DNA from: Burkholderiales bacterium
GTDB lineage: Bacteria; Pseudomonadota; Gammaproteobacteria; Burkholderiales; Burkholderiaceae_C
NCBI GenBank assembly: GCA_028868305.1
Contig: JAGWUS010000005.1
Coordinates: 21,098 to 85,097 of the forward strand
DNA: 64,000 bases
Direction of reading: 5' to 3'
Part shown: positions 5,006-47,894 of the stretch, piece after piece
Layout of the letters: each line of letters opens with the position of its first letter
How positions within the stretch are numbered: the stretch's first letter is position 1
Position numbers and translations under genes: made by a program
The notes under the pieces: model-generated
Told to the model about the DNA's origin: nothing
Database searches by the model: none
The model's input: only the letters and a program-made list of their open reading frames with translations

Positions 5006-6178
5006 TTAGGCACTGGCCCCAGAATTGTCAGGGGAATCGCGCCCTGCGGCCTGCGGATCGCTATTGGCACTGACGATTTCTGCGAGCCGCTGGCGCAAAA
5101 GTGGCAGCCCTTCCATGGTGTAGGCGCTGACAAATACACGCGGAGTCTGGACCCCATCAATCTCGAACTCGTCAGACATGCGCATCGGCCGTCGATCCGG
5201 TTCCAAGGCATCGATCTTGTTGAAGACCAGAAGTTGGGGGATGTCAGCAGCACCAATCTCGCGCAGTACGCGCTGAACGTGCTCGATCTGTTCCACAAAC
5301 TCAAGATTGGACGCATCGACCACATGCAGCAGCAAATCAGCATCAACAGCTTCTTGCAAGGTAGCCCGAAAGGCATCGACCAAGCCGTGCGGAAGATCAC
5401 GGATAAACCCCACCGTGTCAGACAGCGAAACCGACCGTCCGGCTTCGCCAAGGTACAACTGCCGGGTCGTAGTGTCCAGCGTGGCAAACAACTGGTCCGC
5501 TGCGTATGCACGCGCCTTGACCAGTGCGTTGAATAAAGTTGACTTACCGGCGTTGGTATAGCCAATCAGGGAAATGTTGAATGCATCTCGGCGTTCCCGC
5601 TGCCGCCGTTGCGTCTGTCGCTGCCGCTCGACCTTGGCCAGCCGTTCTTTGGTACGTTTGATCGTCTCGCTAATCATCCGGCGATCTAACTCGATCTGCT
5701 TCTCACCAGGGCCTCCACGCACTCCGGCACCGCCGGTCTGGCGCTCCAGGTGCGACCACCGACGAACAAGGCGGGTGCTGAGATATTGAAGTCGTGCCAG
5801 TTCCACCTGCAACTTGCCCTCATGGCTGCGGGCACGCTGGGCGAAAATTTCGAGAATCAGGTAGGTACGATCGTTGACAGGCAACTCGAGGTGGCGCTCC
5901 AGATTGCGCTGTTGTCCTGGACTTAAGGATTGGTCAAACAGCACCTCTGTCGCACCTGTCTGTTGCGCCAACAACTTGATTTCATCCGCTTTGCCGGAAC
6001 CGACGAAGAGCGCGGCATCAGGTGCCTTGCGCTTGCAAGTCACCCGCGCAACGGGTGTCATACCTGCGGTCTGGGCCAGCAACCCCAACTCTTCCAGTTC
6101 ACCATCGAAATTAGGCAACCCAAAATCTACCCCAACCAGTAGGGTTGGGGCGTCAGGTAGTTTGGATGGTGCGGTCAA
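5006..6178 (-). CDS. hflX: GTPase HflX
   Basis: 390 aa with G1 motif GYTNAGKST and G3 DTVGF. It sits in the hfq-hflX-hflK-hflC order. Confidence 0.9.
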   Translation of the reverse strand: MTAPSKLPDAPTLLVGVDFGLPNFDGELEELGLLAQTAGMTPVARVTCKRKAPDAALFVGSGKADEIKLLAQQTGATEVLFDQSLSPGQQRNLERHLELPVNDRTYLILEIFAQRARSHEGKLQVELARLQYLSTRLVRRWSHLERQTGGAGVRGGPGEKQIELDRRMISETIKRTKERLAKVERQRQTQRRQRERRDAFNISLIGYTNAGKSTLFNALVKARAYAADQLFATLDTTTRQLYLGEAGRSVSLSDTVGFIRDLPHGLVDAFRATLQEAVDADLLLHVVDASNLEFVEQIEHVQRVLREIGAADIPQLLVFNKIDALEPDRRPMRMSDEFEIDGVQTPRVFVSAYTMEGLPLLRQRLAEIVSANSDPQAAGRDSPDNSGASA

Positions 6179-6189
6179 GTCGTGGAAAA

Positions 6190-6204
6190 GAAAACCAGGT
6201 TTTC
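6190..6204 (-). other. short palindrome/hairpin between hfq and hflX (possible attenuator)
   Basis: GAAAACCAGGTTTTC lies 30 nt after the hfq stop. On the transcribed strand a T-rich run follows the stem. The stem is weak and short. Confidence 0.2.
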
Positions 6205-6233
6205 AAAGAAAGGGCTGCTAAAGCGGCCGAGGC

Positions 6234-6482
6234 TCAAGCTGCGGGCGACTCTTCGGTACCGTTGACGGCGAAATTGACCGCGCGTCCGGGAACAATGGTG
6301 GAAATGGCGTGCTTGTATACCATTTGGGTTACTGTATTGCGCAGTAACACCACGTATTGGTCGAAGGATTCAATCTGACCCTGCAATTTGATGCCGTTCA
6401 CCAGGTAAATGGAGACGGGGACGTGTTCCTTGCGTAATGCATTGAGGAACGGGTCTTGCAGTAACTGCCCTTTGTTGTTCAC
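6234..6482 (-). CDS. hfq: RNA chaperone Hfq
   Basis: Contains [45 protein letters not shown], the Sm1/Sm2 core. I moved the start to the GTG at 6480-6482, which is preceded by GGAGA with a 5-nt spacer. The track's upstream ATG at 6527 would add 15 non-conserved residues. Confidence 0.95.
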
Positions 6483-6539
6483 GATATTCTCCGTGTTCAG
6501 GAATTGAAGAAGAGTTGACGATACCACACCCGGCCGGCG

Positions 6540-7883
6540 TCAATCGTCGTCCTTGCCCGAGAAAGGGTTTTCGGACGTTTTCATTTGAATTCGCAAGGGT
6601 GTGCCTACGAGGTCAAATTCTTTGCGGAAACGCCCCTCCAGAAACCGTTTGTAGGCTTCGGTGACGTGCTCCAGGGAATTTCCGTGCACAACAATGATGG
6701 GAGGATTCATGCCACCCTGGTGCGCATAACGCATTTTGGGTCGGTACATACCTGTCTTCTTGGGTGTCTGGAACTGCACCGCCTCCAGCAGCAACCGCGT
6801 CAGCACCGGCGTTGACATCTTGCAGTTGGCAGCACGATGAGCCTGCGCAATCGAATCCCACAAGGGTCCAAGCCCCTGTCGCTTCTTGGCCGAGATCCAG
6901 TGCACATTGGCAAACTTCAGAAACCCCAGACGGGTTTCCATGGAACGCTTAACCAACTCACGCTGGTACTCGTCGACGGCATCCCACTTATTCACTGCAA
7001 TCACTACCGCCCGTCCGGACTCAAGGATGTAGCCCGCAATATGTGCGTCCTGGTCGGTCACTCCTTGCGTAGCATCAATCAGAAGCAGCACCACACTGGC
7101 GGACTCGATGGCCTGCAAAGTTTTGACTACCGAGAATTTCTCTATGGCTTCAAATACCTGGCCCCTGCGACGCAAGCCGGCAGTATCGACCAGTTCAAAG
7201 CTCTGGCCATTGCGCTCAAACGGCACAGAAATAGCGTCACGGGTGGTGCCCGGCATATCAAAAGCTACCAACCGCTCTTCGCCGAGCCACGTGTTTATCA
7301 GCGTTGATTTGCCCACATTCGGCCGTCCGGCAACGGCCAGCTTGATGACCGAGGGATCCTGCTCTGACGTTTCATCCTCCGGATCAGGGAGATTCAGCGG
7401 ATCCAGTGCCACTTCCACCACGGAACGTATCCCCTGTCCGTGTGCGGCCGAAACGGGAAAAACCTCGCCAAACCCCAATTCGAAAAATTCCCCCAACTGG
7501 ACACCTTGTGTCATGCCCTCGGCCTTGTTGGCCACGAGCACACAGGGTTTGGCCAGCCGACGGAGGTAATTGGCAATTTCATGGTCCTGCGCAGAAACAC
7601 CGGCACGCGCATCGACTACAAACACCACCACATCGGCCTCGGCAACTGCCTGACGCGTTTGCTTAGCCATTTCCTTGAAGATGCCACTAGTCGCATCGGG
7701 TTCAAAGCCCCCCGTGTCGATAACAATGTACTCGTACTTGCCCTGTTTCCCATGACCATAGTGGCGGTCTCGGGTAAGACCGGCAAAATCCGCAACGATG
7801 GCATCACGGCTTTTAGTCAGGCGATTAAACAGGGTCGACTTGCCGACATTGGGCCGGCCCACCAGCGCGATAACAGGTTTCAT
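6540..7883 (-). CDS. der: ribosome-associated GTPase Der/EngA (tandem G domains)
   Basis: Two P-loops ([12 protein letters not shown] and [12 protein letters not shown]) plus a KH-like C-terminus; 447 aa. Confidence 0.95.
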
Positions 7884-7900
7884 GGGTGAATATTCCGGAA

Positions 7901-9043
7901 TTACTCAGGCCGGAATCCAAACACGCCACCGCGCCGCGTTACAACAATCAGCGTCTTTCCCGACAGGACCGGTGCCCCCACAATAGCGGAGCCGTCGGTA
8001 GCAAGGCGATTCAAGGGCGCACCATCTTCCCGGGACAGGAAATGCACTAAGCCGGCATCATCACCAACGACGATGGATCGGCCGAGCAGCATGGGTGTTG
8101 ATAGTCCCCGAAATCTGAGTCGTTCAGACACCCACAAACGTTCCCCATCCGACCGCCGCCATGCAATTAATTTGCTGTCGCTTTCCGTGCCGACCAGTAA
8201 AGTGTCATCCCCGTGCAGGCCCGTGCTGCCGTTGGCAGGCTTGCTCCAGAGCAGACTGGCCCGTGCGGTATTGATACATGCGACCACCGATTGAAAAGCA
8301 CGCATGCAGGAGACATCCCCAACGCGACTCACTCCCGAAACAAGGTCCACCAGCCTCTCAACTTCATTGGTACCACGGCTGTTGGCAACAGAAACGTCCC
8401 ACCGAACAGTACCGTTCAAAGGATTCAATCCAACCAGTCGACCTCCGAGTCCAACCACCAGCGTATCCCCGACCGCATAAAGAACACCAGATTGCCCCAG
8501 TACCAGAGGATCACCCGTTCTTTGCTGCTGCCACAGCTTACGTCCAGACGCTACATCGAAAGCGGAAATAGAGCGGTCACCAGACAGGGTAAAGACACGC
8601 GCTCCGGCCACCAGTGGTGCCGTCAGCGTGACCGCACTGAGGCGCTGACGCCACAATTCCTTGCCATTTTCCAGGACAACCAATTCATTTTCACGCGTTA
8701 CAACGCTGGTGTAACGGCCATCCGAGCCAACACCCGCAGCAATGGGGGTGTTTAACGTGGTACGCCACATGTCACCACCGGTACGTGCGTCAATCGCAGC
8801 AAGTAGTCCAGTAGAGTCTGCAACCACCACCTGGTTGCCCACCACATGTATATTCAATGGGAACCCGACTGGACCCACCTTGCTCACCCATGCCTGACGT
8901 ACACCAACCAGCGCAGTGTTAGGCCCCAGTTCGGCGGGCTTAGCCTTCTCTGTTCCCGCACAGCCTGCCAGCAGTATCCCGGCCATGATCAGCATGGTAC
9001 CGAACCAACGCGAGTATCGAGAGGAAGAATTAAGTCCGCTCAC
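7901..9043 (-). CDS. bamB: outer membrane protein assembly factor BamB (beta-propeller lipoprotein)
   Basis: Lipobox LLAGC in the signal peptide and repeated PQQ-like propeller blades. The yfgM-bamB-der synteny is present. Confidence 0.85.
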
Positions 9044-21920: not shown

Positions 21921-22685
21921 ATGTCCATCGGCTACAAACTCACCGCGTCCACTGGCATCCACAAGGGGGATCGTGAATACCAGCAAGACCAGATTGCATT
22001 GATCAAACACCCTCGCATCAATGGATGCATTCTTGCCATTGTTGCAGACGGAATGGGCGGGCGCAGTGGTGGTCGCAAGGCATCCGATCAAGTCATGATG
22101 ACTGCACGCCAGCTTTTTGAACGCTACGACCCCGCGACCGATGATGCCTCCGCCACACTCGGCCAAATTGTGCAGGAGGCCCACATCGTCATTAAGTTGA
22201 CGGCTATTTCGTCAGAAGAAGAGCCCCACAGCACCATGGCTGCGTTCCTGATCAATCCGGGGGGCGACTGTCACTGGGCCCACACAGGAGACTCGCGGAT
22301 ATACCAATACCATGGCGGTCGCTTTATCAAGCGCACGATGGACCACTCCTATGTGCAGGCCCTGGTGAATCGCGGAGAAATCACCGAAGAAGAGGCCGCA
22401 GTGCACCCGCAGTCCAACATCCTTATGGGCTGCCTGGGTACAGACAATGACCCGCCGGTCGATTTCCACTTCATCTCACAACTGCGCCCAGGTGATGTCC
22501 TGATGGCCTGCAGCGACGGGATCTGGCACTATTTCAACACCAATGAAATTGGTTCGGTGCTTGCAACGCTGTCAGCACGGGAAGCCACTGAGTTTCTGAT
22601 TGAAAAAGCGCGCTCCCGCGCGCATGGTGGTGGAGACAATCTGTCCGTCGTGATTGTCAAGTTCGAACCACTCGACAAGCACTAA
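21921..22685 (+). CDS. PP2C-family Ser/Thr protein phosphatase
   Basis: Metal-binding motifs IVADGMGGRSGG and ACSDGIW plus GGGDNLSVVIV. I preferred the ATG at 21921 over the track's TTG at 21888, but neither has a clear SD. Confidence 0.8.
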   Translation: MSIGYKLTASTGIHKGDREYQQDQIALIKHPRINGCILAIVADGMGGRSGGRKASDQVMMTARQLFERYDPATDDASATLGQIVQEAHIVIKLTAISSEEEPHSTMAAFLINPGGDCHWAHTGDSRIYQYHGGRFIKRTMDHSYVQALVNRGEITEEEAAVHPQSNILMGCLGTDNDPPVDFHFISQLRPGDVLMACSDGIWHYFNTNEIGSVLATLSAREATEFLIEKARSRAHGGGDNLSVVIVKFEPLDKH

Positions 22686-23299
22686 GGTGCTGATGGCAGG
22701 GGGACTGTCGGCTTGCCGGCGGCTTTTTCCTTCAAGCGCTTGTCACGTTCCTGGCGCTTTAATTCGGCGTCCTGCAACTTGCGCTCGTACGCCTGCCGAT
22801 TGCCTGTTGCCCCCTGCTCCACTGCCGCCTGCTTGCTTTGGCGCGAAGACTCCAAGGACTTGCCAGATTCAACAACTGGCAACGGCAGCCGCTGTGCATC
22901 CCGCTGCTTCGGGGCCGGTACTGCACTGGCTTCCGGGCCTGGATTTGCGCCTGCGTCACGCAGCTTCTGCGTGTGTTCGAGTTTTTTTTCTTCCTGGCGA
23001 CGGGATTGCTCCTCGCCCCGCTGTTTGCGTTGCAGGTCATGCAGGCTTTCCTGCTGGCGCCTAATACTGGTTAATTTTTCGCGATCGCGCGCCCGTGCAG
23101 CCTTGACACAGTCATTGACCGCAAATTTTTCCTGGCATGCACGTTCCTCTTCCCTGCCCTGTTGAATGATCTGCTGACGCAATGCGTCCAGTCTTTGCTG
23201 CTGCACGGCAATGCTGGAATCGACCGTCGCACCCACCGGCTGGGCGCTCGCCGGCACCAGGGAAAGAACGCCCAACAGGATCACCACCTGGCGCTTCAT
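22682..23299 (-). CDS. secreted, highly charged coiled-coil protein of unknown function
   Basis: Signal peptide MKRQVVILLGVLSLVPASA followed by Q/R/E/K-rich heptad-like sequence. The start overlaps the zapE stop by 4 nt. Confidence 0.5.
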   Translation of the reverse strand: MKRQVVILLGVLSLVPASAQPVGATVDSSIAVQQQRLDALRQQIIQQGREEERACQEKFAVNDCVKAARARDREKLTSIRRQQESLHDLQRKQRGEEQSRRQEEKKLEHTQKLRDAGANPGPEASAVPAPKQRDAQRLPLPVVESGKSLESSRQSKQAAVEQGATGNRQAYERKLQDAELKRQERDKRLKEKAAGKPTVPLPSAP

Positions 23300-35701: not shown

Positions 35702-36256
35702 ATGCGTTTTATATTCTTTTTGATTGCCGCCCTGCTCGCGGTGGCAGTTCATGCTGCGCCCCAGACTTCGTCCGGGGACGAGATGCCACGCATTATTTCT
35801 GACCGCGGTTTGATGGAGCGCATTGGAGAAGTGGGCCTGCGGGTCGAAAGTAAGGCGTCGGAATATGTCGTGAGCGCCATGACATTTCTGGGCGTACCTT
35901 ACAAACGCGGCGGAACAAGCGCTGAGACCGGCTTTGATTGCAGCGGTTTCGTAAAAACCATTTACGAACAGACGGCTGGCCTCATCCTGCCGCGTCGGGC
36001 TGAACAGCAGGCAGCGGCCACCCAACGGATTGACAAAAGTGACCTGCAACCCGGCGACCTGGTGTTTTTCAACACCATGCGCCGCGCGTTTAGCCACGTG
36101 GGCATCTACGTTGGCAACGGCAAGTTCATCCACGCGCCCAAACCTGGAGCGGAAGTTCGCGTAGAAGACATGGGCGTTGCCTACTGGAAGCGTCGCTTTG
36201 ATGGCGCACGCCGCGTCACTGTTGAGCAATCGACCTCCAGCAGCGTCCAGCCTTGA
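35702..36256 (+). CDS. NlpC/P60 (C40) peptidoglycan endopeptidase
   Basis: Signal peptide, catalytic Cys context GFDCSGFV, and the His context HVGIYVGNGKFIHAP. Confidence 0.85.
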   Translation: MRFIFFLIAALLAVAVHAAPQTSSGDEMPRIISDRGLMERIGEVGLRVESKASEYVVSAMTFLGVPYKRGGTSAETGFDCSGFVKTIYEQTAGLILPRRAEQQAAATQRIDKSDLQPGDLVFFNTMRRAFSHVGIYVGNGKFIHAPKPGAEVRVEDMGVAYWKRRFDGARRVTVEQSTSSSVQP

Positions 36257-36276
36257 GCAAGGCGCCCGTGCCGCCC

Positions 36277-37530
36277 ATGCTTTTCACCGATCTGGGGCTC
36301 TGCCCTGCCCTGCTGAATGCCGTAACCAGCAACGGCTTTACAGCACCTACTGCAGTTCAGAGTGCCGCCATTCCGCCAGCCATTGCCGGACAGGACGTTC
36401 TTGCAAAAGCACAAACCGGCTCCGGCAAGACCTTCGCATTTGCACTGCCGCTGTTGCAAACCCTGACGCAAACGAATAGCGCGAGAACCCGATTCCCCAG
36501 AGCACTGGTATTGGTCCCAACCCGTGAACTGGCAGTCCAGGTAGGCGAAGCATTGCATCTCCTGTCGAAGACCATGCCTGAATCCATCAAGGTGAGCGTG
36601 GTGTTTGGCGGCGTGTCCATCAACCCCCAGATGATGGCGCTGCGTGGGGGGACAGACATTGTGGTTGCCACCACCGGACGATTGCTCGACCTACTGGATC
36701 GCAACGCCCTCACCCTTTCATCGGTCAGTATGCTCGTTCTCGACGAGGCTGATCGCATGCTGGATCTGGGCTTTTCTGAAGAACTGCAACGCATCCTGGC
36801 GTTACTACCCGCCAAGCGCCAAAACCTGTTTTTCTCTGCCACCTACCCCGCTGGCGTGGAGGCGTTGGCCAACACGATTCTACAAAACCCTGCGCGGGTG
36901 GATGTCCTTCAGAAAGCCATCGGGCAGCCGGACATTACACAACGCGCCATTGCGGTGGATGCGGCACGCAGGACGCAACTCCTGCGCCATCTGATCACCA
37001 CCGAAACCTGGCCGCGTGTCCTTGTCTTTGTAGCAACCAAACACGCCGCCGAAATCGTGGCAGACAAACTCAGACGCGTGCATATTGACGCCGAGCCATT
37101 TCACGGCGAACTCAGCCAGGGCAAACGCACCCAGGTACTTCACGACTTCAAGGCTTCACGCATCCGGGTTGTCGTAGCTACCGATATGGCTGCGCGTGGT
37201 CTGGACATCACGCAGTTGCCAGCAGTGGTGAATTTCGACCTGCCCCGCTCTTCCGCAGACTACACCCACCGCATTGGCAGAACCGGCCGCGCCGGCGAGG
37301 CTGGCATCGCCATCAGTTTTGTAAGCGCAGTCACCGAGCCGCACTTCCAGTTGATCGAGCGACGCCAGGGGCATGCCGTTCCCCGTGAAGTCATCGCTGG
37401 TTTCGAACGGACCGAAGCTGCGCCGGTATCAGCAGACTCCGCCCATGGTGGCATCAAGGGCAAGCGCCCGAGCAAGAAGGACAAACTGCGCGCTGCCCAG
37501 GCAGCCCAAACAGACCCGTCCAGCGCCTGA
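36277..37530 (+). CDS. rhlE: DEAD-box ATP-dependent RNA helicase (RhlE-like)
   Basis: Q-motif region, AQTGSGKTFAF, DEAD, SAT, HRIGRTGRAG and a basic C-terminal tail. I preferred the ATG at 36277 over the track's TTG at 36253. Confidence 0.85.
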   Translation: MLFTDLGLCPALLNAVTSNGFTAPTAVQSAAIPPAIAGQDVLAKAQTGSGKTFAFALPLLQTLTQTNSARTRFPRALVLVPTRELAVQVGEALHLLSKTMPESIKVSVVFGGVSINPQMMALRGGTDIVVATTGRLLDLLDRNALTLSSVSMLVLDEADRMLDLGFSEELQRILALLPAKRQNLFFSATYPAGVEALANTILQNPARVDVLQKAIGQPDITQRAIAVDAARRTQLLRHLITTETWPRVLVFVATKHAAEIVADKLRRVHIDAEPFHGELSQGKRTQVLHDFKASRIRVVVATDMAARGLDITQLPAVVNFDLPRSSADYTHRIGRTGRAGEAGIAISFVSAVTEPHFQLIERRQGHAVPREVIAGFERTEAAPVSADSAHGGIKGKRPSKKDKLRAAQAAQTDPSSA

Positions 37531-37573
37531 TGCAATTCACGGGGAGTGGCCGCAAGGCCTACCTCCGCCCGGA

Positions 37574-39787
37574 TTACTTTGCAGCTTTGGCTGCGGCCTT
37601 CTTTGCAACCGCTTTCTTCACCGCAACTTTTGGACTTGCCACCTTTTTGGTGGCAATCGTTTTGGCGAGAGCTTTGACTGGCGCATTTGCTGTGACAGCT
37701 TTCTTCGCTGGCGCTTTTTTGGCTGCCGGCTTATCGACTTTTACAGATTCGTTGGTCTTCCAGGTCAGCCGCGCCTTCTTTGCAAGCTTCACGACCTTGG
37801 CAATATCTTCATCACTGAAGACACCATTGACCCCTGAAATGGCGGCCAGCTTCATGCCGTGCTTGAGACCCAGCTTGTAGATTTCCTTGACCTTTTCCCA
37901 CTCGGTATCGCGGCCCACGGTGAACACTTCAAAGCGCCCCTCCAGAGCGAGGACGATGGTTTCAGCCAGACATGCGTAAATCACGTTCGGCGGCAGGCCA
38001 ATGCTCTTGAGGCCCTTGACCTTGGTCGGCAGATCAATCTCGCCAGACTCAATTACTAGCACGTCGGGCCGCTTGGCCACATCTTCTGCTGGCAAATCCA
38101 GCGGACGTGCCACGTCGGTGATCACACAGCCTGGCTTGACCTTCATGATGTCCAGAATTTCTTTGCCTGCACCGGATGTGGAGGTCACGATCATGTCCAT
38201 GTCGGAGAGCAGATCGTTGTAGTCGATGGTGGTAAACACCTTGGCATCCGGCGTCTCCTTCAGGATCGACGCCTTGAGTTCATCCAGCTTGCTCAGCGTG
38301 CGGCCCGCCAGGTAGACCTCGTCAAACGACATCGCCAGCAAACGTGCACTAACCGAGCCAATGGAGCCGGAGGCGCCAATCACCATGGTTTTGGCAGCAA
38401 CTTTCTTGTTGTGCTTGTTGATTGTCAGAAGGCCCATGCGGCGCATGGCATCGGCAGCAGCCCACAGCGCACCGGACGCCGAGTAACTGTTGCCCGTGGT
38501 AATGGGCAAACTGGAACGGCGCGCCACGGTAACACCCGCGTCTCCCACCACTTTGGTAAAAGCCCCCAGGCCCATGATCTGGGCCCCCATTTTTTCGGCA
38601 ATTTTGGAAGCGTGCAACAGACGCCGGTAGGTGAACTCCGGACTGCGCGAGAGCATTTCCTTGGGTGTACCACCCACCGAGATCAGCCACCCCTCTGCTT
38701 CCGCTCCCGTGGGAGAAATGATGTTCTCCATCTTGCAATACACCATGGGAGGCATATGCGCCGCCAGTGTCTCGACCTTGTCCATGACGAACTTGGGCGT
38801 GGACTTCGGGATGGGAAAGGCGTTACGGATGTAGTTCTGACTCAGCGGGTGAATCACAAAAGCAAAGCGGCGAATATTGCGGAATTTGCCCGTGGGGTGC
38901 AGCAATCGCGGCGCGATCGCGAGTTCATCCAGTATTTCTTCAAAGTCGTCATCCGACACTTCGTCGGTCCCCTTCTCCAGCGCCGCAAGAATCATGGCCT
39001 CGATGGTGTTGACACCCACTACCTTGTCGAACAACTTGGGGGAAACGTCCACCACCAGATTGACTTTGCACTTGGCGAAGAATGCCATGCGCTCATCATC
39101 CACCGCAGAGGTAATCAGCGTCTTGCCTTCCAGATTGGACGGATTGCCCACTGCCTTGATCTCGGCGAAGGTACCCACAATCACATGGGACTTGGCCACC
39201 ACGCCGGCAATGCGCTTGCCCTTGAAACCCGACATGGAGGCTTCCAGCATCTCGCCCGATTTTCCCGACAGCATCCATTCACTGCCCTTGGCAAACAGTT
39301 CCAGTTGCTCCAGCGAGGTCAGCATGGCTGGGGCACCGGTCTGGAATAGCGCATCGGCAAAACTCAGGTTCTTGCTGTAGTCCGACAGGGCCACCGCCAT
39401 GTCGTAATTGCGCATGCCCGAGAGGAACAGGATGAGGTTGTTGTTGAAATAGTTGCCCAGCTCTTTTTGCACATACCGCACCGCGCGCACCTGCAAAAGG
39501 CGCCGCAATGTGGCGCCGGTGGTTGCCGGAATACGCGTCACCACGTTGAGCAGGCGCTGTGTCTCCTTATTCACGACGGTGCGCAAACCCACCTGGTAAT
39601 GGTCGCCGATTTCCCCCAGACCGATGGCGTCCACTGTGGCCTGCTGGCGACGCATCAGTTCCCATGCCTTACCCGTATCGTTGTCCGCACCCATGCGCTT
39701 GACCGAAAACGATTGCCCCAGAAAATCGGTCTTGAATTCGAAATCCTGTTTGGACGAACCCAGCGTCACTGTCACTACTTTTTTCAT
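37574..39787 (-). CDS. three-part fusion: unknown N-terminal domain (about 290 aa) + acyl-ACP-reductase-like (COG5322) Rossmann dehydrogenase + Lys/Ala-rich histone-H1-like tail
   Basis: The middle and C-terminal part aligns by eye with cyanobacterial acyl-ACP reductase: GLGAFTKVVGD, ITTGNSYSA, the Rossmann motif VIGASGSIGSVSARLL and IYACLAETIVLALEG. The last 54 residues contain 17 Lys (...KKAVAKKAAAKAAK). Confidence 0.6.
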   Translation of the reverse strand: MKKVVTVTLGSSKQDFEFKTDFLGQSFSVKRMGADNDTGKAWELMRRQQATVDAIGLGEIGDHYQVGLRTVVNKETQRLLNVVTRIPATTGATLRRLLQVRAVRYVQKELGNYFNNNLILFLSGMRNYDMAVALSDYSKNLSFADALFQTGAPAMLTSLEQLELFAKGSEWMLSGKSGEMLEASMSGFKGKRIAGVVAKSHVIVGTFAEIKAVGNPSNLEGKTLITSAVDDERMAFFAKCKVNLVVDVSPKLFDKVVGVNTIEAMILAALEKGTDEVSDDDFEEILDELAIAPRLLHPTGKFRNIRRFAFVIHPLSQNYIRNAFPIPKSTPKFVMDKVETLAAHMPPMVYCKMENIISPTGAEAEGWLISVGGTPKEMLSRSPEFTYRRLLHASKIAEKMGAQIMGLGAFTKVVGDAGVTVARRSSLPITTGNSYSASGALWAAADAMRRMGLLTINKHNKKVAAKTMVIGASGSIGSVSARLLAMSFDEVYLAGRTLSKLDELKASILKETPDAKVFTTIDYNDLLSDMDMIVTSTSGAGKEILDIMKVKPGCVITDVARPLDLPAEDVAKRPDVLVIESGEIDLPTKVKGLKSIGLPPNVIYACLAETIVLALEGRFEVFTVGRDTEWEKVKEIYKLGLKHGMKLAAISGVNGVFSDEDIAKVVKLAKKARLTWKTNESVKVDKPAAKKAPAKKAVTANAPVKALAKTIATKKVASPKVAVKKAVAKKAAAKAAK

Positions 39788-39818
39788 TGCATTGCTCCTC
39801 TTTGTTGTTGTCGCTGCA

Positions 39819-41114
39819 TCACGCTGGCTTGCGGGTGGTCTTGCGCGCGGACTTGGTTGCTGGCTTCGTGGCGGCCCCGGGCGCGGCCTTGGGCGGCAGG
39901 GCCTGGCGAATCAGATCTTCACACACCGCCTGGGACATATACCGTGGCACCGGGTAACCGGTGTGCGCCTCATGGCATGCGGCTTTGGCCAGTGCAGGGA
40001 TATCCGATTCTTTCAAAGCCTCCAGATACAGAGGAATCCCCAGATCATGGTTCAGTGCATCCACGGCGTCGAGAAACTTCTGTGCCAGCACGTCCGTATC
40101 TTCGCCTTCCACGCCGACGCGTGCGCGCACCGCCAGAAGCGCTAGGCGACGGGTAATTGCGGGACTGGAATACTTCAACACCAGCGGCAGCATGATGGCA
40201 TTGGCCAACCCATGGGGCGTGTGGTACCTGCCGCCAAACTGGTGTGCAATGGCGTGCACATAACCCACATTGGCACGGGTAAAAGCAAAGCCGGCGTAGG
40301 TAGAGGCCAGGGCCATTTTTTCCCGTGCTTCCAGGTTCTTGCCATCGCGGTAAGCCGTGCGCAGGTTTTCAAAAATCAGGCCTACGGCCGACAGCGCCAT
40401 GCCATCGGAATACGGCGTGCACCAGTTGCCAACAAAGGCTTCAATTGCATGCGTCAGGGCATCAATGCCGGTGGCGGCGGTGATATGCGGCGGCAACCCG
40501 GTCATCAGGTTGGGGTCCAGCGCCGCCATCTTGGGCACCATCCGAGGATCGACGATCACCAGCTTGGCCTGTCGCTCGGGGTCGGAAATTACGGCTGCCA
40601 CGGTCACTTCAGATCCGGTGCCGGCAGTAGTGGGCACCGCATAAATCTTGATTGGGGAATTGAGTCCCTTGAGGTAGCCCGCCAGCTTGCGCAAAGGCTT
40701 GGGGTTGGCAATGGAAACCGCAATCGCCTTGGACGCGTCCATGGAAGAGCCCCCCCCAAAAGCCACAATCGCGTCGCAGTCATGCTCCTTGTAAAACGCA
40801 ATGCCTTTCTCAATGAGCGGAATGGGTGCGTCGGGCGTGATTTCATCGAACACCACGTACTCGGCGCCCCCGGCAGACAGTGCATCGGTCAGGTCCTTGA
40901 GCAAGCCCAGTTTGGAGATGATGCTGTCCGTCACGATGAGGATTTTGGAGTGCCCCATTCCTGCCACCGCCTGCCCCAGACGCCCGCTGGAGCCAGGCCC
41001 GATCAGTAGCGTTGGCTGCGGGATGGGAATGAACCGCGTCACCAGACCGGCACCTTTCATCAGCGCCCCCAGTCCCGCAGCGCGCATGGAATCGGACATC
41101 AAATCGGAAATCAT
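39819..41114 (-). CDS. iron-containing (group III) alcohol dehydrogenase with a basic Pro/Lys/Thr-rich C-terminal tail
   Basis: Contains the GGGSSMDASKA motif and metal-binding His residues (HAIEAF, HAIAHQFGGRYHTPHG). The start is the ATG at 41112-41114, after GGGGGAGAG. The tail is ...PPKAAPGAATKPATKSARKTTRKPA. Confidence 0.85.
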   Translation of the reverse strand: MISDLMSDSMRAAGLGALMKGAGLVTRFIPIPQPTLLIGPGSSGRLGQAVAGMGHSKILIVTDSIISKLGLLKDLTDALSAGGAEYVVFDEITPDAPIPLIEKGIAFYKEHDCDAIVAFGGGSSMDASKAIAVSIANPKPLRKLAGYLKGLNSPIKIYAVPTTAGTGSEVTVAAVISDPERQAKLVIVDPRMVPKMAALDPNLMTGLPPHITAATGIDALTHAIEAFVGNWCTPYSDGMALSAVGLIFENLRTAYRDGKNLEAREKMALASTYAGFAFTRANVGYVHAIAHQFGGRYHTPHGLANAIMLPLVLKYSSPAITRRLALLAVRARVGVEGEDTDVLAQKFLDAVDALNHDLGIPLYLEALKESDIPALAKAACHEAHTGYPVPRYMSQAVCEDLIRQALPPKAAPGAATKPATKSARKTTRKPA

Positions 41115-41240
41115 CACAACTCTCCCCCTACAAATCAGGACCAAACCTACGGAACACCCCACCGGGATATTCCTACGCGTCCATTCTGCATGATCCCGGG
41201 TGGAGTGCGCTACCTACTTGGGCTAGGGCAAACCCCGCCT

Positions 41241-42053
41241 TCAGTCCTTGAAAGCTGGCTTTCGTCTGGAAGCGTTAGCGGCCATGGCCTCGCCAAGGTC
41301 TTTGCTCATCAGCATGGCAGCATTCCAGGTGGCGATGTAGTTCAGGCCGTCCGCTACCGTGTGATCCCGCGCGTAAGTGATCATTTCCTTGGTGCCACGG
41401 ATCGACAACGGCGATTTGGCGGCGATGGTCGCCGCAATCTCACGCACACCAGCGTAGAGTTCCTCACGGCTTGCAAAGACCCGGTTCACAAGATGCATTT
41501 CGCGGGCCTCCTCGGCCGTGAAATTGCGCCCGGTATAGGCCAACTCGCGCGCCATGCCATCGCCAATCAGGCGCGGCAAACGCTGCAGGGTGCCCACATC
41601 GGCCGTCATGCCGATATCGATTTCCTTGATGGTGAAATACGCGTCCGCACTGGCGTAGCGCATGTCGGCGCAGGTGATCATGTCGATGCCGCCACCCACG
41701 CAGGCACCATGAATGGCCACCATCACCGGTTTGCGGCAGCGCTCCATGCTGGTCAGGGTGTCCTGCAGGTCCAAAATGACACGGCGCAGGCCTTCGCGGG
41801 TACGGCCATCACAGTCGTTCTGGATCTGCGCATTCAGACCCATCAGCATCGTCAGGTCGATGCCGGCAGTAAAGAGCTTGCCCTCGCCCTGCAGAATGGC
41901 CACGCGTGCCTCGGGCGTTTCATCCACCCAGCGAAAGGCCTTGCGGATCTCTTCCCACATGGTGGCGTTCATGGCATTGGCCTTTTCGGGCCGGTTCAGG
42001 CGCAAGGTGGCGATGTGGTCTTCCAGCGTGACGCTGAGGGTTTCAAACTGCAT
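41241..42053 (-). CDS. crotonase-fold enoyl-CoA hydratase/isomerase (dienoyl-CoA-isomerase-like)
   Basis: N-terminus LRLNRPEKANAMN...FTAGIDL. The start is the ATG at 42051-42053, after AAGGAGA. Confidence 0.75.
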   Translation of the reverse strand: MQFETLSVTLEDHIATLRLNRPEKANAMNATMWEEIRKAFRWVDETPEARVAILQGEGKLFTAGIDLTMLMGLNAQIQNDCDGRTREGLRRVILDLQDTLTSMERCRKPVMVAIHGACVGGGIDMITCADMRYASADAYFTIKEIDIGMTADVGTLQRLPRLIGDGMARELAYTGRNFTAEEAREMHLVNRVFASREELYAGVREIAATIAAKSPLSIRGTKEMITYARDHTVADGLNYIATWNAAMLMSKDLGEAMAANASRRKPAFKD

Positions 42054-42071
42054 AGTGTCTCCTTGTAGCAA

Positions 42072-44609
<2,538 letters not shown>

Positions 44610-44612
44610 CTA

Positions 44613-44626
44613 TGCAACCAGTTGCA
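44613..44626. promoter_or_regulatory. operator-like palindrome copy 1 (TGCAAC-CA-GTTGCA) in the fadH/padR divergent region
   Basis: This is the core of the 15-nt repeat ATGCAACCAGTTGCA. It lies 46 nt upstream of the fadH start. Confidence 0.45.
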
Positions 44627-44652
44627 ATAGTTTAGGAGAAGCGCCAAACTAA

Positions 44653-44666
44653 TGCAACCAGTTGCA
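44653..44666. promoter_or_regulatory. operator-like palindrome copy 2 (TGCAAC-CA-GTTGCA)
   Basis: An identical 15-nt ATGCAACCAGTTGCA lies 40 bp from copy 1 and 32 nt upstream of the padR ATG. Confidence 0.45.
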
Positions 44667-44697
44667 TAGTTGCAGTGCAGCACGTAGACTGGCGCCC

Positions 44698-45234
44698 ATG
44701 TCGCTCGCCCACGCAGTTTTGACCTCGCTGATGGAAAAGTCGTCTTCCGGCTACGACCTGGCACGCCGGTTTGACAAGTCCATTGGCTATTTCTGGCACG
44801 CCACCCACCAGCAGATTTACCGTGAACTCGCCCGCATGGAAGCAGCAGGCTGGATTGAATCCAGCTCGGCCCCCGACGCGGGCAAGACCCGCAAACGCGA
44901 GTACCGGGTGCTGCCCGCCGGGCGCACCGAACTGGCGCGCTGGGCCTGCGCACCTTCGCCTCCCCCAGATTTGCGCGACGAGTTCATGGTGAAGCTACGG
45001 GCCGATGCGGCCCTGGGCGAGGTGGACCTGCGCGATGAATTGCGCCGGCACATCGCGTTGCACCAGGACAAGCTGACCCAGTACCGCGCTATCGAACTGC
45101 GCGACTTTGCGCAAGGCAAGCCCCTGACCCGCCACGCGCGCATCCAGCACATGATTCTCAAGAAAGGCATCCTGTACGAGGAAGGCTCGATTTCCTGGGG
45201 CCAGGAATTGCTGGGAATACTGGGTGGCGCCTGA
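44698..45234 (+). CDS. PadR-family transcriptional regulator
   Basis: Winged HTH (AVLTSLMEKSSSGYDLARRFDKSIGYFWHATHQQIYRELARMEAAGW). I preferred the ATG at 44698 over the one at 44662. Confidence 0.8.
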   Translation: MSLAHAVLTSLMEKSSSGYDLARRFDKSIGYFWHATHQQIYRELARMEAAGWIESSSAPDAGKTRKREYRVLPAGRTELARWACAPSPPPDLRDEFMVKLRADAALGEVDLRDELRRHIALHQDKLTQYRAIELRDFAQGKPLTRHARIQHMILKKGILYEEGSISWGQELLGILGGA

Positions 45235-45339
45235 CCCGGATTGTGAGCCAAATCGGGCTCCAGCCCCCGGATAGCATGCACAAGTAGCTACAACTTTTGT
45301 AGCAAATGCAGCTGCTGCATGAAGACCTGGTCCGGCCTG

Positions 45340-46116
45340 TCAGGGGCGCTGTGTGTACTTGGGCGGGCGTTTTTCCAGAAACGCTTGGATGCCTTCCTGC
45401 GCATCGGGTGTCATGGCCGCGGTGGCCATGCGCTCTACCGCAAAGGCATAAGCCTGGTCTTGCGGCAACTCCATCTGGCGGTAAAAAGCCTGTTTGCCCA
45501 ATGCCTTGGAGGCAGCGCTGCCGCGCGTTGCGCGCTGGATCAGATCCAGCGTGGCAGCCTCCAGCTGGTCTGGAGGCACCGCCTTGTTGATCAGCCCCCA
45601 CTGGGCTGCCGTTGCGGCATCAACGGCGTCGCCGGTCATGGCCATTTCAAGCGCACGCTTGCGTCCGATATTGCGCGCCACGGCCACCACCGGCGTGTGG
45701 CAGAACAGCCCCGCCTTGCCACCCGGAATCGCAAAGCTGGCAGTATCCGCCGCGACCGCCAGATCGCAGGTGGCCACCAGTTGGCAACCGGCCGCGGTGG
45801 CCAGCGCATGCACCCGCGCCACCACCGGCTGGGGCATGGACTGCACTGCGTTCATCATGTCGGTGCACACCGCAAACAGCTCCCGAGCCTGCTCCAGGCT
45901 GGCACCGGCCATATCCGCAAAATTGTGCCCCGCACTGAACACCGGCCCGTTGGCTGCCAGGATCACACCCAGCGCATCGGACTGCGCTATGGCATGCAGC
46001 GCCTGCGTCAGCTCCTGCATGACGCTCAAAGCCAGTGCATTGCGCTTTTCGGGCCGGTTCAGCGTGATCGTGGTAATGGGGCCATCGGTGGTGACCAGAA
46101 TATTTTCGAACGGCAT
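45340..46116 (-). CDS. enoyl-CoA hydratase/isomerase family protein
   Basis: N-terminus ITLNRPEKRNALA...VFSAGHNF, a crotonase fold. The start is the ATG at 46114-46116. Confidence 0.8.
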   Translation of the reverse strand: MPFENILVTTDGPITTITLNRPEKRNALALSVMQELTQALHAIAQSDALGVILAANGPVFSAGHNFADMAGASLEQARELFAVCTDMMNAVQSMPQPVVARVHALATAAGCQLVATCDLAVAADTASFAIPGGKAGLFCHTPVVAVARNIGRKRALEMAMTGDAVDAATAAQWGLINKAVPPDQLEAATLDLIQRATRGSAASKALGKQAFYRQMELPQDQAYAFAVERMATAAMTPDAQEGIQAFLEKRPPKYTQRP

Positions 46117-46117
46117 A

Positions 46118-46672
46118 TCAGCTCCCTTTTGCATTGGCAGGTGGCTTGAAAAACATTGGATGGTGGCGCGCCACCACCGGTCCGGCCAGATCCCAGGCCA
46201 GGCAACGGCCCAGGTGGTGGGGTGGCTTGGTGGGGTCGCTGGCCGACGCGTCTTCCGGCAGGGTCTGGTACGCGGCGGTCGCCATGTTGTACAGAAGCTC
46301 CCTCAGATGGGCGCAGCCCTGAATGCCCCCCAGATGCTGCTCGATGGCCCGGCGCCATCCGGGCCCCATGGTGCTGCCCACCATGCGGTGCATGGGCGCC
46401 TGCGCCTGGGGACATTCGCGGTGTGGCACATCGTCCATGCTCACCGCAATGTCACGCACCACCAGCGCGTCATCAATGGTCACGCGGATCGACATGCCGT
46501 GGATAGGCTCGCCGGGCTGCCATACACCGTCGCCGGGTATCTCAAACACCTGGTCTTTGGTGTCGCGCAATTCCCCTTCAATGTCCCACAGACCGTCCTC
46601 CCGGCGGTAACCGCGGTAAACCGTGGTGCGGGTATGTTGGGCGGTGCGCGGTGCGGGCTGTGGCAATGGCAA
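46118..46672 (-). CDS. DUF2889-like protein
   Basis: 184 aa. The GCAHLRELL motif and overall length match my recollection of DUF2889. Its stop is 1 nt from the hydratase start. Confidence 0.5.
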   Translation of the reverse strand: MPLPQPAPRTAQHTRTTVYRGYRREDGLWDIEGELRDTKDQVFEIPGDGVWQPGEPIHGMSIRVTIDDALVVRDIAVSMDDVPHRECPQAQAPMHRMVGSTMGPGWRRAIEQHLGGIQGCAHLRELLYNMATAAYQTLPEDASASDPTKPPHHLGRCLAWDLAGPVVARHHPMFFKPPANAKGS

Positions 46673-46724
46673 TTCGGGACTCCTTGTAATGGTCTAGCTA
46701 AGATCTGCGAATCAGGAGCCAGGG

Positions 46725-47894
46725 TCATACTTTAAAAGAGATACTGACACTGGCGCAGGCCTTGCCAATCCGCCGGGCCAGCAGGCCGCCCGCCACACAC
46801 AGGGTCACCGTCACCAGCCAGGTCCATTGCCAGCCCCCGGTGCCCGCCGCCACCCATGCCACCAACGGGGGCCCGGCGAACTGGCCGAAGGCTGACCACT
46901 GCTGCATATAGCCCACTGTCGTGGACACCGTATCCTCACTCGGCGCCAGCCGCACAGCCGAAGCAAACAGGGTGCCCGGTATCTGGCCACCCACTGCCGA
47001 AAAAAGCACCACCTCCACAAACCGCAGCGGCAGGGGCAAGCCCTGCCCGTGCCATTGCGCAAACGCCCCCACTGCGCCCAGTGCCATGCAGGCAAAGCCG
47101 ATTTGCAGCAGGCGCTCGGCCCGCCATCCGCGCTGCAGCAAGCGCCCCGAGAGAATGTTGCCACTGACATTGGCCAGCGCAACACAGGCCGTCAGCACAC
47201 CGGTCATGCCACTGGCCAGACCCGCCTGCGCATACACCGTTGGTAGAAAACCAATGACGGCAATCCACTGCGAGGAATACACCATGAAGCTCAGCGACAC
47301 CAACCAGGGCCCGGGGCTGCGCAGGGTCAAACCCAAACGCTGCGCCCAGCCCGCACCGGATGCCGCCGGGGCGCCCACTGCCAGAACCACGGCTGCAGCG
47401 GGCCCCAGCACCGGCACACACCACCACACGGCCAGCCAGGCCAGAACTGACGCAGCGCCCAGCAACCACCACCACACCTGCCAGGGAAAGTGCATCAGCA
47501 CCAGGGGCCCCAGCAGCAATGCCATGGCGCTGCCCAGGGGCATGTAGGTTCCCCACCACCCCATGCGCGCGTTCAGTTGTGCCAGCGCCACCGTGCGCCG
47601 GATCATGGCCGGGGCCGGCATCACCACCAGCAGAAAACCCAGCCCCTCCAGGGCGCGCAACACCAGCAAACCACCCACCGTATCGGCAAACCCGCCCAGC
47701 CCGCTGGCCAGCGCCAGCAAGCCCAGCCCGGTCAGCATGGTGCGGCGCAGACCCAGCGCGTCTGCCCCCAGCCCCACTGCCAGGCCCAGCGTCATGCCCG
47801 CCAGTTGCACCATCGACAACAGGAACCCGGCCTGCACCAGCGTCACCCCCAGTTGCTGCTGCAACACAGGCATTGCGGGGGGCAGCTTGCCCAC
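46725..47894 (-). CDS. MFS transporter (5' end unresolved; see findings)
   Basis: Multiple TM helices and MFS motif A (GLGADALGLRRT). The track's start is a GTG that falls after what looks like TM1. Confidence 0.7.
   Translation of the reverse strand: MGKLPPAMPVLQQQLGVTLVQAGFLLSMVQLAGMTLGLAVGLGADALGLRRTMLTGLGLLALASGLGGFADTVGGLLVLRALEGLGFLLVVMPAPAMIRRTVALAQLNARMGWWGTYMPLGSAMALLLGPLVLMHFPWQVWWWLLGAASVLAWLAVWWCVPVLGPAAAVVLAVGAPAASGAGWAQRLGLTLRSPGPWLVSLSFMVYSSQWIAVIGFLPTVYAQAGLASGMTGVLTACVALANVSGNILSGRLLQRGWRAERLLQIGFACMALGAVGAFAQWHGQGLPLPLRFVEVVLFSAVGGQIPGTLFASAVRLAPSEDTVSTTVGYMQQWSAFGQFAGPPLVAWVAAGTGGWQWTWLVTVTLCVAGGLLARRIGKACASVSISFKV

Follow-up and report, generated by a model that had tools for sequence, protein, structure and literature searches.

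The window analysed here is a 64,000-nucleotide stretch of Burkholderiales bacterium DNA (GCA_028868305.1, contig JAGWUS010000005.1, positions 21,098–85,097), and on its minus strand at 37574..39787 it contains an open reading frame (ORF) of 737 aa with an ATG start. The encoded protein, called here the fusion protein, was confirmed to consist of three parts, as the initial annotation of this DNA had proposed. Residues 1–300 (38888..39787) form a two-lobed alpha/beta N-terminal domain (N-domain) that belongs to no Pfam family. Residues 303–676 (37760..38881) form an acyl-thioester reductase module of the type known from acyl-ACP reductase (AAR; ACP, acyl carrier protein) and PigE, as identified with NCBIfam profiles, PDB sequences and Foldseek. 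Residues 677–737 together with the stop codon (37574..37759) form a disordered Ala/Lys/Pro-rich polycationic tail, as identified by AlphaFold and composition. The ORF located 31 bp upstream on the same strand (39819..41162) encodes a group III iron-containing alcohol dehydrogenase (Fe-ADH) with the Pfam domains Fe-ADH and ADH_Fe_C (E = 1e-49 to 1e-51); Met17 at 41114 is probably where translation really begins, and it ends in a basic tail of its own (39819-39899). Judged from sequence, the fusion protein and this Fe-ADH are good candidates for a so far undescribed pathway by which bacteria would turn fatty acyl thioesters into fatty alcohols and waxes.

The motifs quoted in the initial annotation were all found in the fusion protein, and all are read from the minus strand. 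FAFVIHP and GLGAFTKVVGD occupy residues 308–314 and 406–416, respectively. PITTGNS lies at the junction of the two reductase subdomains (residues 428–434; 38486..38506), the nucleotide-binding loop GASGSIG runs as G471-A-S-G474-S-I-G477 (residues 471–477; 38357..38377), and YACLAET (residues 604–610) contains Cys606, the predicted acyl-accepting catalytic Cys, whose TGT codon is at 37970-37972. The conservation and the gene context of these features were followed in 80 related loci, all from Betaproteobacteria (Rhodoferax, Hydrogenophaga, Inhella, Rubrivivax, Ideonella, Variovorax, Brachymonas, Dechloromonas, Azonexus and Ca. Aalborgicola), in which the neighbours found in the window were compared by tblastn. 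Across these loci the fusion protein is 76–96% identical over residues 1–676, and the PITTGNS junction is present in 79 of the 80.

Reductase core and its superfamily

The PigE/TamH reductase-aminotransferase profile NF053554, which has a full-length cutoff of 850 bits, matched the fusion protein through the PigE N-terminal half (E = 6.1e-54, 183.6 bits; residues 308–680 on profile positions 2–368 of 837). The AAR profile TIGR04058 matched with E = 7.6e-18 and 64.9 bits, against an equivalog cutoff of 449.7 bits. The best matches among PDB sequences were PigE (4ppm, E = 5.7e-29) and AAR (6jzq, E = 3.2e-14). The full-length AlphaFold (AF2) model, made from an input of 17 diverse sequences (pLDDT 82, pTM 0.80), had the two-subdomain fold of an alpha/beta substrate domain and a Rossmann domain. 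Its top Foldseek match in the PDB was AAR (6jzy, E = 9.2e-20, TM(target) 0.71–0.72), followed by the TAD of the carmabin nonribosomal peptide synthetase (NRPS; E = 3.5e-18). Domain profile search and structure prediction, two of the checks put forward in the initial annotation, both detected the AAR/PigE relationship. In the alignments of PDB sequences, Cys606 fell in the column of AAR Cys294 (FAC294FAEA) and PigE Cys296 (NGC296MAET), and the equivalent Cys in TAD is Cys2238; the AAR-like core with a conserved acyl-accepting Cys is therefore borne out by profile, fold and alignment.

In AAR, PigE and TamH the acyl group is transferred to this Cys and the acyl-enzyme is reduced by NAD(P)H to the aldehyde, which is then passed to a docked or fused next enzyme (PMC8341465; PMC9594044). 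An invariant T-T-G junction motif and the Cys have also been described for TAD, the T-T-G for AAR too (bioRxiv 10.1101/2024.10.28.620694). The fusion protein shares with AAR (6JZQ/6JZY) the two-subdomain fold, the catalytic Cys, the GxxGxxG loop, the Arg after beta-2, the TTGN motif and the F/YAC-x-AE helix, and a ping-pong reduction through an acyl-enzyme is presumed for it as well. The Arg in question is found in YLAGR496T after the nucleotide loop, where Arg496 takes the position of the Arg in the “TAR” of AAR, which weakly suggests NADPH as the cofactor.

These motifs were highly conserved. Of the 80 loci, 79 have Y/FACLAET and the last is truncated; among 120 close homologues, 119 have YACLAET. 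The same proportions (79/80 and 119/120) apply to the Cys, GxxGxxG and TTG motifs together. In alignment A1, T430 and G432 were invariant, and G471, A472, G474 and G477 were invariant or nearly so. Because the fusion protein has all the AAR/PigE motifs and these are conserved across the related loci and the close homologues, it can be assigned securely to the AAR superfamily. The profile scores exclude that it is an orthologue of AAR or PigE; it is a superfamily relative. The initial annotation did not know the route to be characterised outside cyanobacteria. AAR-type reductases have been characterised there: in Serratia the N-domain of PigE (PMC8341465), and in Pseudoalteromonas the TR domain of TamH (PMC9594044), were shown to reduce thioesters to aldehydes, which are then used by a transaminase and not by an ADH. 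AAR-like reductases are thus known outside cyanobacteria, but none was found in this architecture or pathway.

The fusion protein has more than 4,600 homologues, with names that include [quoted passage not shown] and “predicted amino acid dehydrogenase”. If such names were right, the protein would be a saccharopine, shikimate/quinate or other amino-acid dehydrogenase, and it does give Pfam matches to Sacchrp_dh_NADP (E = 2.8e-7) and Shikimate_DH (E = 1.7e-6). These matches are confined to the generic Rossmann stretch of residues 463–565 and each spans just 60–100 residues of that fold, whereas the PigE and AAR matches exceed them in strength by 10 to 45 orders of magnitude and extend over the entire module. 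The companion domains Sacchrp_dh_C and Shikimate_dh_N were not detected. This identity is effectively refuted and we give it hardly any credence. The database names arise because Pfam sees just the generic Rossmann stretch, and at the least several thousand entries bearing them are mis-annotated. NCBIfam profiles of short-chain dehydrogenases/reductases (SDR) also matched the Rossmann stretch only (E = 1e-3 to 1e-6). No aminotransferase domain was found by Pfam, and NAD_binding_4 and HMG-CoA reductase domains were absent from the Pfam matches at E ≤ 0.01.

A probably degenerate N-terminal half

The N-terminal 302 aa gave no Pfam match even at E ≤ 10. A phmmer search over 1.84 billion representatives placed this domain in a family of 584 clusters (50% identity). 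Some of its members are the N-terminal halves of fusions of 640–830 aa, and many are standalone proteins of ~300 aa with 24–29% identity; Pfam matches were absent in all the standalone proteins sampled. One standalone member is named “quinate 5-dehydrogenase” and another member of the clusters “dehydrogenase”, which agrees with the suggestion in the initial annotation that the domain belongs to a family mis-annotated under the former name. The N-domain modelled separately reached a pLDDT of 92.6. Foldseek found no close structural homologue: the lowest E value, 4.5e-6, belonged to periplasmic sugar-binding proteins with a TM of ~0.3, and the highest TM values (0.45–0.51) were those of AAR (0.51) and TAD (0.49), then glutamate dehydrogenase and malic enzyme.

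When the N-domain was aligned by hhalign with the profile of its own core, the match was modest (E = 3.2e-4, 39% probability; E = 0.11 with a second profile) and the alignment was in register at the diagnostic motifs. The T-T-G motif P87ATTG91 of the N-domain was paired with P428ITTG432 of the core, and FLSGMRNYDMAVAL (LSGMRNYDMAVAL) with the nucleotide loop GASGSIGSVSARLL. The catalytic-Cys helix YAC606LAETIVLALE (YACLAETIVLALE) was paired with GVNTIEAMILAALE. These findings support, with moderate confidence, an origin of the N-domain as an ancient degenerate internal duplicate of the AAR module. Since the glycine loop and the Cys are both lost, it is regarded as a pseudo-reductase. It would be catalytically dead, and its most likely role is that of a scaffold or of a surface on which the carrier protein or the ADH docks; it might also act as a pseudo-dimer partner. 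An internal duplication that yields a pseudo-enzyme half fused to an active half would be of wider interest.

Split versions, with a standalone N-domain adjoining a separate AAR-like core, were not found among the loci; a 403-aa neighbour in L087 that was considered for such a core proved unrelated (BLASTP E = 2.7). Standalone N-domain homologues occur in an operon with an NTP_transf_3 nucleotidyltransferase, a PAP2 phosphatase and an Agl23-like membrane protein (L088, 6001-9813; L089, 1041-4139), a gene context quite unlike that of the fusion.

Operon partners and polycationic tails

The Fe-ADH gene was found immediately upstream of the fusion gene and on the same strand in all 75 loci that could be assessed, with 69–91% identity; the five others have no upstream DNA. 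The survey of co-occurrence thus upheld the pairing described in the initial annotation and supported the Fe-ADH as a true functional partner of the fusion protein.

In 18 loci a gene of the wax-ester synthase/diacylglycerol acyltransferase (WS/DGAT) type was found directly downstream on the same strand by clustering and annotation of the flanking ORFs (L045, L047, L050-L052, L054, L055, L057, L058, L061, L063, L067, L071, L074-L077 and L079). These loci span Rubrivivax, Ideonella and several metagenome-assembled genomes of Burkholderiales and Betaproteobacteria. The gene lies ~200–300 bp past the conserved core of the fusion gene, just after its stop codon, and the gap between the two genes was -4 to +29 bp in the four loci measured. 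The linked WS/DGAT has the domains PF03007 and PF06974 and scores 452 bits on TIGR02946 (cutoff 310). The Fe-ADH, the AAR-like reductase and the WS/DGAT therefore constitute a three-gene operon in these 18 loci. The genes beyond it vary by locus, and no known fatty acyl reductase type is among them. In Rhodoferax-type loci the downstream genes encode an MFS transporter, a Hydrolase_4 alpha/beta hydrolase and an M20 peptidase, and two such loci have a divergent WS/DGAT ~6 kb away. No WS/DGAT was found in the 64-kb window by tblastn (E ≤ 1e-10). A WS/DGAT directly downstream in 18 related loci lends weight to the proposed conversion of a thioester through an aldehyde to an alcohol.

More distant fusions (29–52% identity to the fusion protein) were examined for their neighbours as well. 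P0140 (L083-L085; gene 6001-8136) has Gly in place of the catalytic Cys. On three independent contigs its gene overlaps the start of a gene for a DGAT2-type (PF03982) acyltransferase (8136-8960), so that the two are translationally coupled; the protein may be a pseudo-reductase that works with the acyltransferase. P0183 keeps the Cys, and 17 bp after it starts an extended-SDR reductase (Epimerase/NAD_binding_4 type), placed where an aldehyde reductase would be expected and plausible as an alternative one. Behind P0179, on one 4-kb contig, lie genes for phasin and a PhaR-like protein. The contexts of P0141, P0153 and P0148 were uninformative, their contigs being short or lipid genes not being nearby. 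The Cys-less fusions P0163 and P0155 each adjoin a ~335-aa SH3_3-domain protein, which thus recurs as a partner (L082, 4925-5926; L095, 6090-7097).

Two further minus-strand genes lie upstream of the pair in the window, one for a crotonase-family protein (ECH, 41241-42071) and one for an OYE/Pyr_redox_2 protein of FadH architecture (42072-44609). By Pfam and NCBIfam their identities, like that of the Fe-ADH, were as stated in the initial annotation. The beta-oxidation context drawn from them did not hold: ECH and FadH adjoin the pair in only 2 of the 80 loci, the closest relatives L001 and L002, and because of this they are taken as accidental neighbours and were rejected as part of the unit. 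The FadH-architecture protein carries, besides Oxidored_FMN and Pyr_redox_2, a C-terminal SnoaL_2 domain (residues 715–811), which is unusual for an enzyme resembling 2,4-dienoyl-CoA reductase.

The gene order leaves room for a pathway that runs in the oxidative direction. The Fe-ADH would then oxidise an alcohol, for example from wax esters or alkane oxidation, and the AAR-like enzyme, as an aldehyde dehydrogenase acylating CoA or ACP, would form a thioester for use in beta-oxidation. The order of the ADH and the AAR-like gene matches that of such a pathway, and in the window and the two closest relatives the pair stands directly downstream of the FadH-like and crotonase genes on the same strand. 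In addition, an IVTD motif was read in the ADH sequence, which, from what is known of FucO, we take to be typical of NADH-type group III enzymes. The Hydrolase_4 alpha/beta hydrolase recurs nearby in Rhodoferax-type loci, and an aldehyde dehydrogenase gene lies upstream in L063. However, the beta-oxidation neighbours are restricted to those two loci, and the tight operon link is with a synthase, the WS/DGAT, and not with lipases or beta-oxidation genes. Furthermore, the relatives with an assigned reaction, AAR, PigE and TamH, all act reductively (PMC8341465, PMC9594044), the reaction of TAD being not yet established. We consider the oxidative direction unlikely and prefer the reductive one.

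A feature shared by these enzymes is a polycationic C-terminal tail. Residues 679–737 of the fusion protein were predicted to be disordered (pLDDT ~34 in the AlphaFold model) and are rich in Ala, Lys, Pro and Val; in the last 25 aa the net charge is +9 and Ala, Lys and Pro make up 76%. Such a tail is encoded in each of the 79 related loci whose sequence extends to the stop codon, with a length of 42–158 aa and a net charge of +5 to +29 (median +18), so that the charge property is conserved and the sequence is not. The initial annotation had called this tail histone-H1-like. The composition agrees with that description, and no Pfam H1/HC2 match was found in the fusion protein at E ≤ 0.01, so the likeness would be in composition only; the close homologue P0120 does carry a precomputed PF07382 match. 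In L053 (Dechloromonas sp. SSD3) the tail is Arg/Pro-rich (RPRRRPRQRPRWSRRPHRPGRPRR) instead of Ala/Lys/Pro-rich with the charge kept, as though the same GC-rich repeat DNA were being read in a shifted frame.

A basic C-terminal tail was also present on the Fe-ADH in 80 of 80 sequences from the window and 79 related loci (15–79 aa, net charge +4 to +17). The linked WS/DGAT carried one in 14 of 14 complete cases (26–89 aa, net charge +4 to +21); the WS/DGAT of L057, which is only 33% identical, lacks a tail. The non-adjacent WS/DGATs of L009 and L013 have a polycationic tail too. Within the window, such a tail was seen in only 2 of ~45 candidate ORFs, the fusion gene and the adjacent ADH gene. 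Weaker basic ends (net +5 in the last 25 aa) occur in the convergent DEAD-box helicase (36253-37530, plus strand) and in a 205-aa ORF without a Pfam match (22682-23299, minus strand), and no other ORFs of the window tend toward basic C-terminal ends. The H1-like tails of PhaM and AlgP tether polyhydroxybutyrate and polyphosphate granules to the nucleoid (PMC3556143; PMC9239181). By analogy, the tails described here would probably gather the pathway enzymes on a polyanionic surface such as the nucleoid, polyphosphate or anionic lipid. The C-terminal Ala/Lys/Pro-rich polycationic disordered tails of PhaM (Ralstonia eutropha) and AlgP (Pseudomonas aeruginosa) are like those described here, whereas the present ones sit on the metabolic enzymes ADH, reductase and WS/DGAT. 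Polycationic disordered tails across a pathway are of wider interest, as they may co-localise enzymes that handle a toxic aldehyde.

Proposed route, alternatives and known systems

The reading that we prefer, with a probability of roughly 55%, is that the fusion protein is an NAD(P)H-dependent acyl-thioester reductase of the AAR/PigE superfamily which works with the Fe-ADH to convert an acyl thioester through the aldehyde to the alcohol, feeding wax or neutral lipid. The acyl group of acyl-ACP or acyl-CoA would be transferred to Cys606, and hydride from the nicotinamide bound at the G471xxG474xxG477 Rossmann fold would reduce the acyl-enzyme and release the aldehyde. The partner Fe-ADH would turn this aldehyde into the alcohol, and where a WS/DGAT gene lies directly downstream, the alcohol would be esterified to a wax ester. 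The relatives with assigned reductase activity (AAR, PigE and TamH) convert medium- and long-chain acyl thioesters to aldehydes, TamH acting on C12-ACP (PMC8341465; PMC9594044), and a fatty substrate of this kind is presumed here. In the literature on COG5322, on AAR homologues or the host genera in connection with wax esters, and under the names that annotators use for the family, no description of this fusion or pathway was found.

Several observations weigh against this reading. The fusion protein scores far under the equivalog cutoffs of both AAR and PigE. An adjacent WS/DGAT is absent in 57 of 75 loci and in the window. The closest PDB entries to the ADH are methanol dehydrogenase 8zrl (E = 5.7e-81) and FucO (E = 3e-73), and its closest solved relatives use the short substrates methanol, lactaldehyde and 1,3-propanediol. 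The catalytic Cys is absent from 7 of 11 distant fusions, which have T, E, G, A or S instead and include one from Desulfobacterales and the DGAT2-coupled one; the wider fusion family must on this account also have a Cys-independent function. Finally, the fusion protein is more conserved than any of its neighbours (96% and 95% identity in L001 and L002 vs 59–91% for the neighbours) and is ~84% identical between Burkholderiales and Rhodocyclales (Dechloromonas, Azonexus). Conservation of this degree suggests very strong constraint or recent transfer; it is atypical of storage-lipid enzymes and hints at another, more central role. The slow evolution of the gene was followed in L001, L002, L048, L049 and L053 compared with the window.

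The nature of the ADH and the missing WS/DGAT genes would also suit a non-fatty substrate, the same chemistry being carried out on a short or hydroxy-acyl thioester linked to polyhydroxyalkanoate (PHA), or on another specialised acyl group, to give a diol or small alcohol. The ADH is nearest to short-chain alcohol and diol enzymes, phasin and PhaR genes follow one distant fusion, and most loci are without an adjacent WS/DGAT. The host genera are PHA accumulators, which fits the same picture. H1-like tails are moreover known from the granule-associated proteins PhaM and AlgP (PMC3556143, PMC9239181). On the other side, the neighbours that recur specifically, and do so in two independent lineages, are acyltransferases of the WS/DGAT or DGAT2 type, the characterised relatives use C8–C18 acyl chains, and the phasin link comes from one 4-kb contig. 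A non-fatty substrate accordingly appears to us improbable.

The polycationic tail, the dead duplicate of the reductase fold in the N-terminal half, the family members without the Cys and the very high sequence conservation could all be accommodated by a mainly non-catalytic protein, that is, a nucleoid- or granule-associated scaffold or regulator in which the reductase fold is a ligand or redox sensor. A pseudo-enzyme would not be expected to keep all the catalytic motifs in 79 of 80 loci, and the constant partner is a complete Fe-ADH, in which the GGGSSMD motif and the D-x-x-x-H and H...H metal ligands were read in the sequence. We hold a non-catalytic role to be very unlikely, and catalysis of thioester reduction together with the Fe-ADH continues to be favoured.

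A bolder version of the proposed route is possible, albeit doubtful. In it the Fe-ADH would be the long-sought bacterial fatty aldehyde reductase, the WS/DGAT would be the third step where present, and all three enzymes would form one metabolon through their matching polycationic tails on the nucleoid, polyphosphate or a nascent lipid body.

Among known systems, AAR differs from the fusion protein in being a single module of ~340 aa that docks with aldehyde-deformylating oxygenase (ADO) to make alkanes. The two share only ~22% sequence identity (65 bits on TIGR04058 vs the cutoff of 450), and unlike AAR the fusion protein has an extra 300-aa pseudo-module, a polycationic tail and Fe-ADH, not ADO, as its partner; no ADO-like gene was seen in any flank examined. 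The closest characterised relatives in sequence are PigE of Serratia (prodigiosin) and TamH of Pseudoalteromonas (tambjamine). In these proteins too an AAR-like module is fused to another domain, and the aldehyde is handed directly onward (PMC8341465, PMC9594044). The domain fused there is a class III pyridoxal phosphate-dependent aminotransferase that gives an amine product in a pigment pathway, whereas the fusion protein has no aminotransferase, its next enzyme is the separate Fe-ADH, and its gene is a conserved betaproteobacterial chromosomal gene outside biosynthetic gene clusters. The fusion protein thus differs from AAR, PigE and TamH in architecture, in its Fe-ADH partner, in the WS/DGAT pathway context and in its conserved chromosomal status. 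The TAD of the carmabin/vatiamide NRPS (9E4U) likewise has the AAR-like fold, the invariant Cys and the TTG motif, and it binds NAD(H) (bioRxiv 10.1101/2024.10.28.620694); unlike the fusion protein it is a C-terminal NRPS domain for which amidation of the product has been proposed, and its phmmer similarity to the fusion protein is marginal (E ~0.1).

In its proposed role, the supply of fatty alcohol to WS/DGAT, the fusion protein resembles FarA, AcrB, Acr1 and FcrA, and some FcrA and AcrB genes are also genetically linked to WS/DGAT (PMC11948995, PMC10351704). The protein families are unrelated: FarA and AcrB are SDRs of the NAD_binding_4 type, FcrA is HMG-CoA-reductase-like, and Acr1, likewise of the SDR type, works with an unknown aldehyde reductase, whereas the route proposed here would have two enzymes, with an AAR-type first step and an Fe-ADH second step. 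The haloarchaeal “alternative FAR” was considered as a related system and rejected, being HMG-CoA-reductase-like and unrelated. Among WS/DGAT-bearing bacteria FarA is found in 1%, AcrB in 31% and FcrA in 26%; ~40% have none of the three, and no aldehyde reductase has been identified for the two-step route (PMC11948995). Because the three enzymes cover only these fractions, there is room for another fatty alcohol route. If the proposed route is true, it would be a fifth, unrelated bacterial solution for making fatty alcohols beside FarA, AcrB, Acr1 and FcrA, and the two-step route would have in the Fe-ADH a concrete candidate for its fatty aldehyde reductase. The alcohol source of some Betaproteobacteria with WS/DGAT, organisms abundant in freshwater, groundwater and activated sludge, would be explained as well, and the pair would provide a compact two-gene cassette for oleochemical production. 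Should the metabolon also prove real, some of the ~40% of bacteria that bear WS/DGAT but no known fatty acyl reductase would thereby be accounted for.

Surroundings of the pair in the window

A scan of 37300-45000 for promoters and terminators was uninformative, the counts being equal to or below those in shuffled sequence. The window as a whole is ordinary chromosome of a Rhodoferax-like betaproteobacterium, with hflX/K, der, bamB, hisS, ispG, rodZ, rlmN, sucAB-lpd and an acyl-CoA synthetase gene. The GC content is ~0.54–0.58 in 1-22000, where the housekeeping genes hflX/K, der, bamB, hisS, ispG, rodZ and rlmN are located, and 0.60–0.65 in 42000-64000. At 44662-47894 a PadR-family regulator gene, divergent from the FadH-like gene, is followed by genes for a second crotonase, a DUF2889 protein and an MFS transporter, and this region may be a separate acyl-CoA-related cluster beside the fusion gene.

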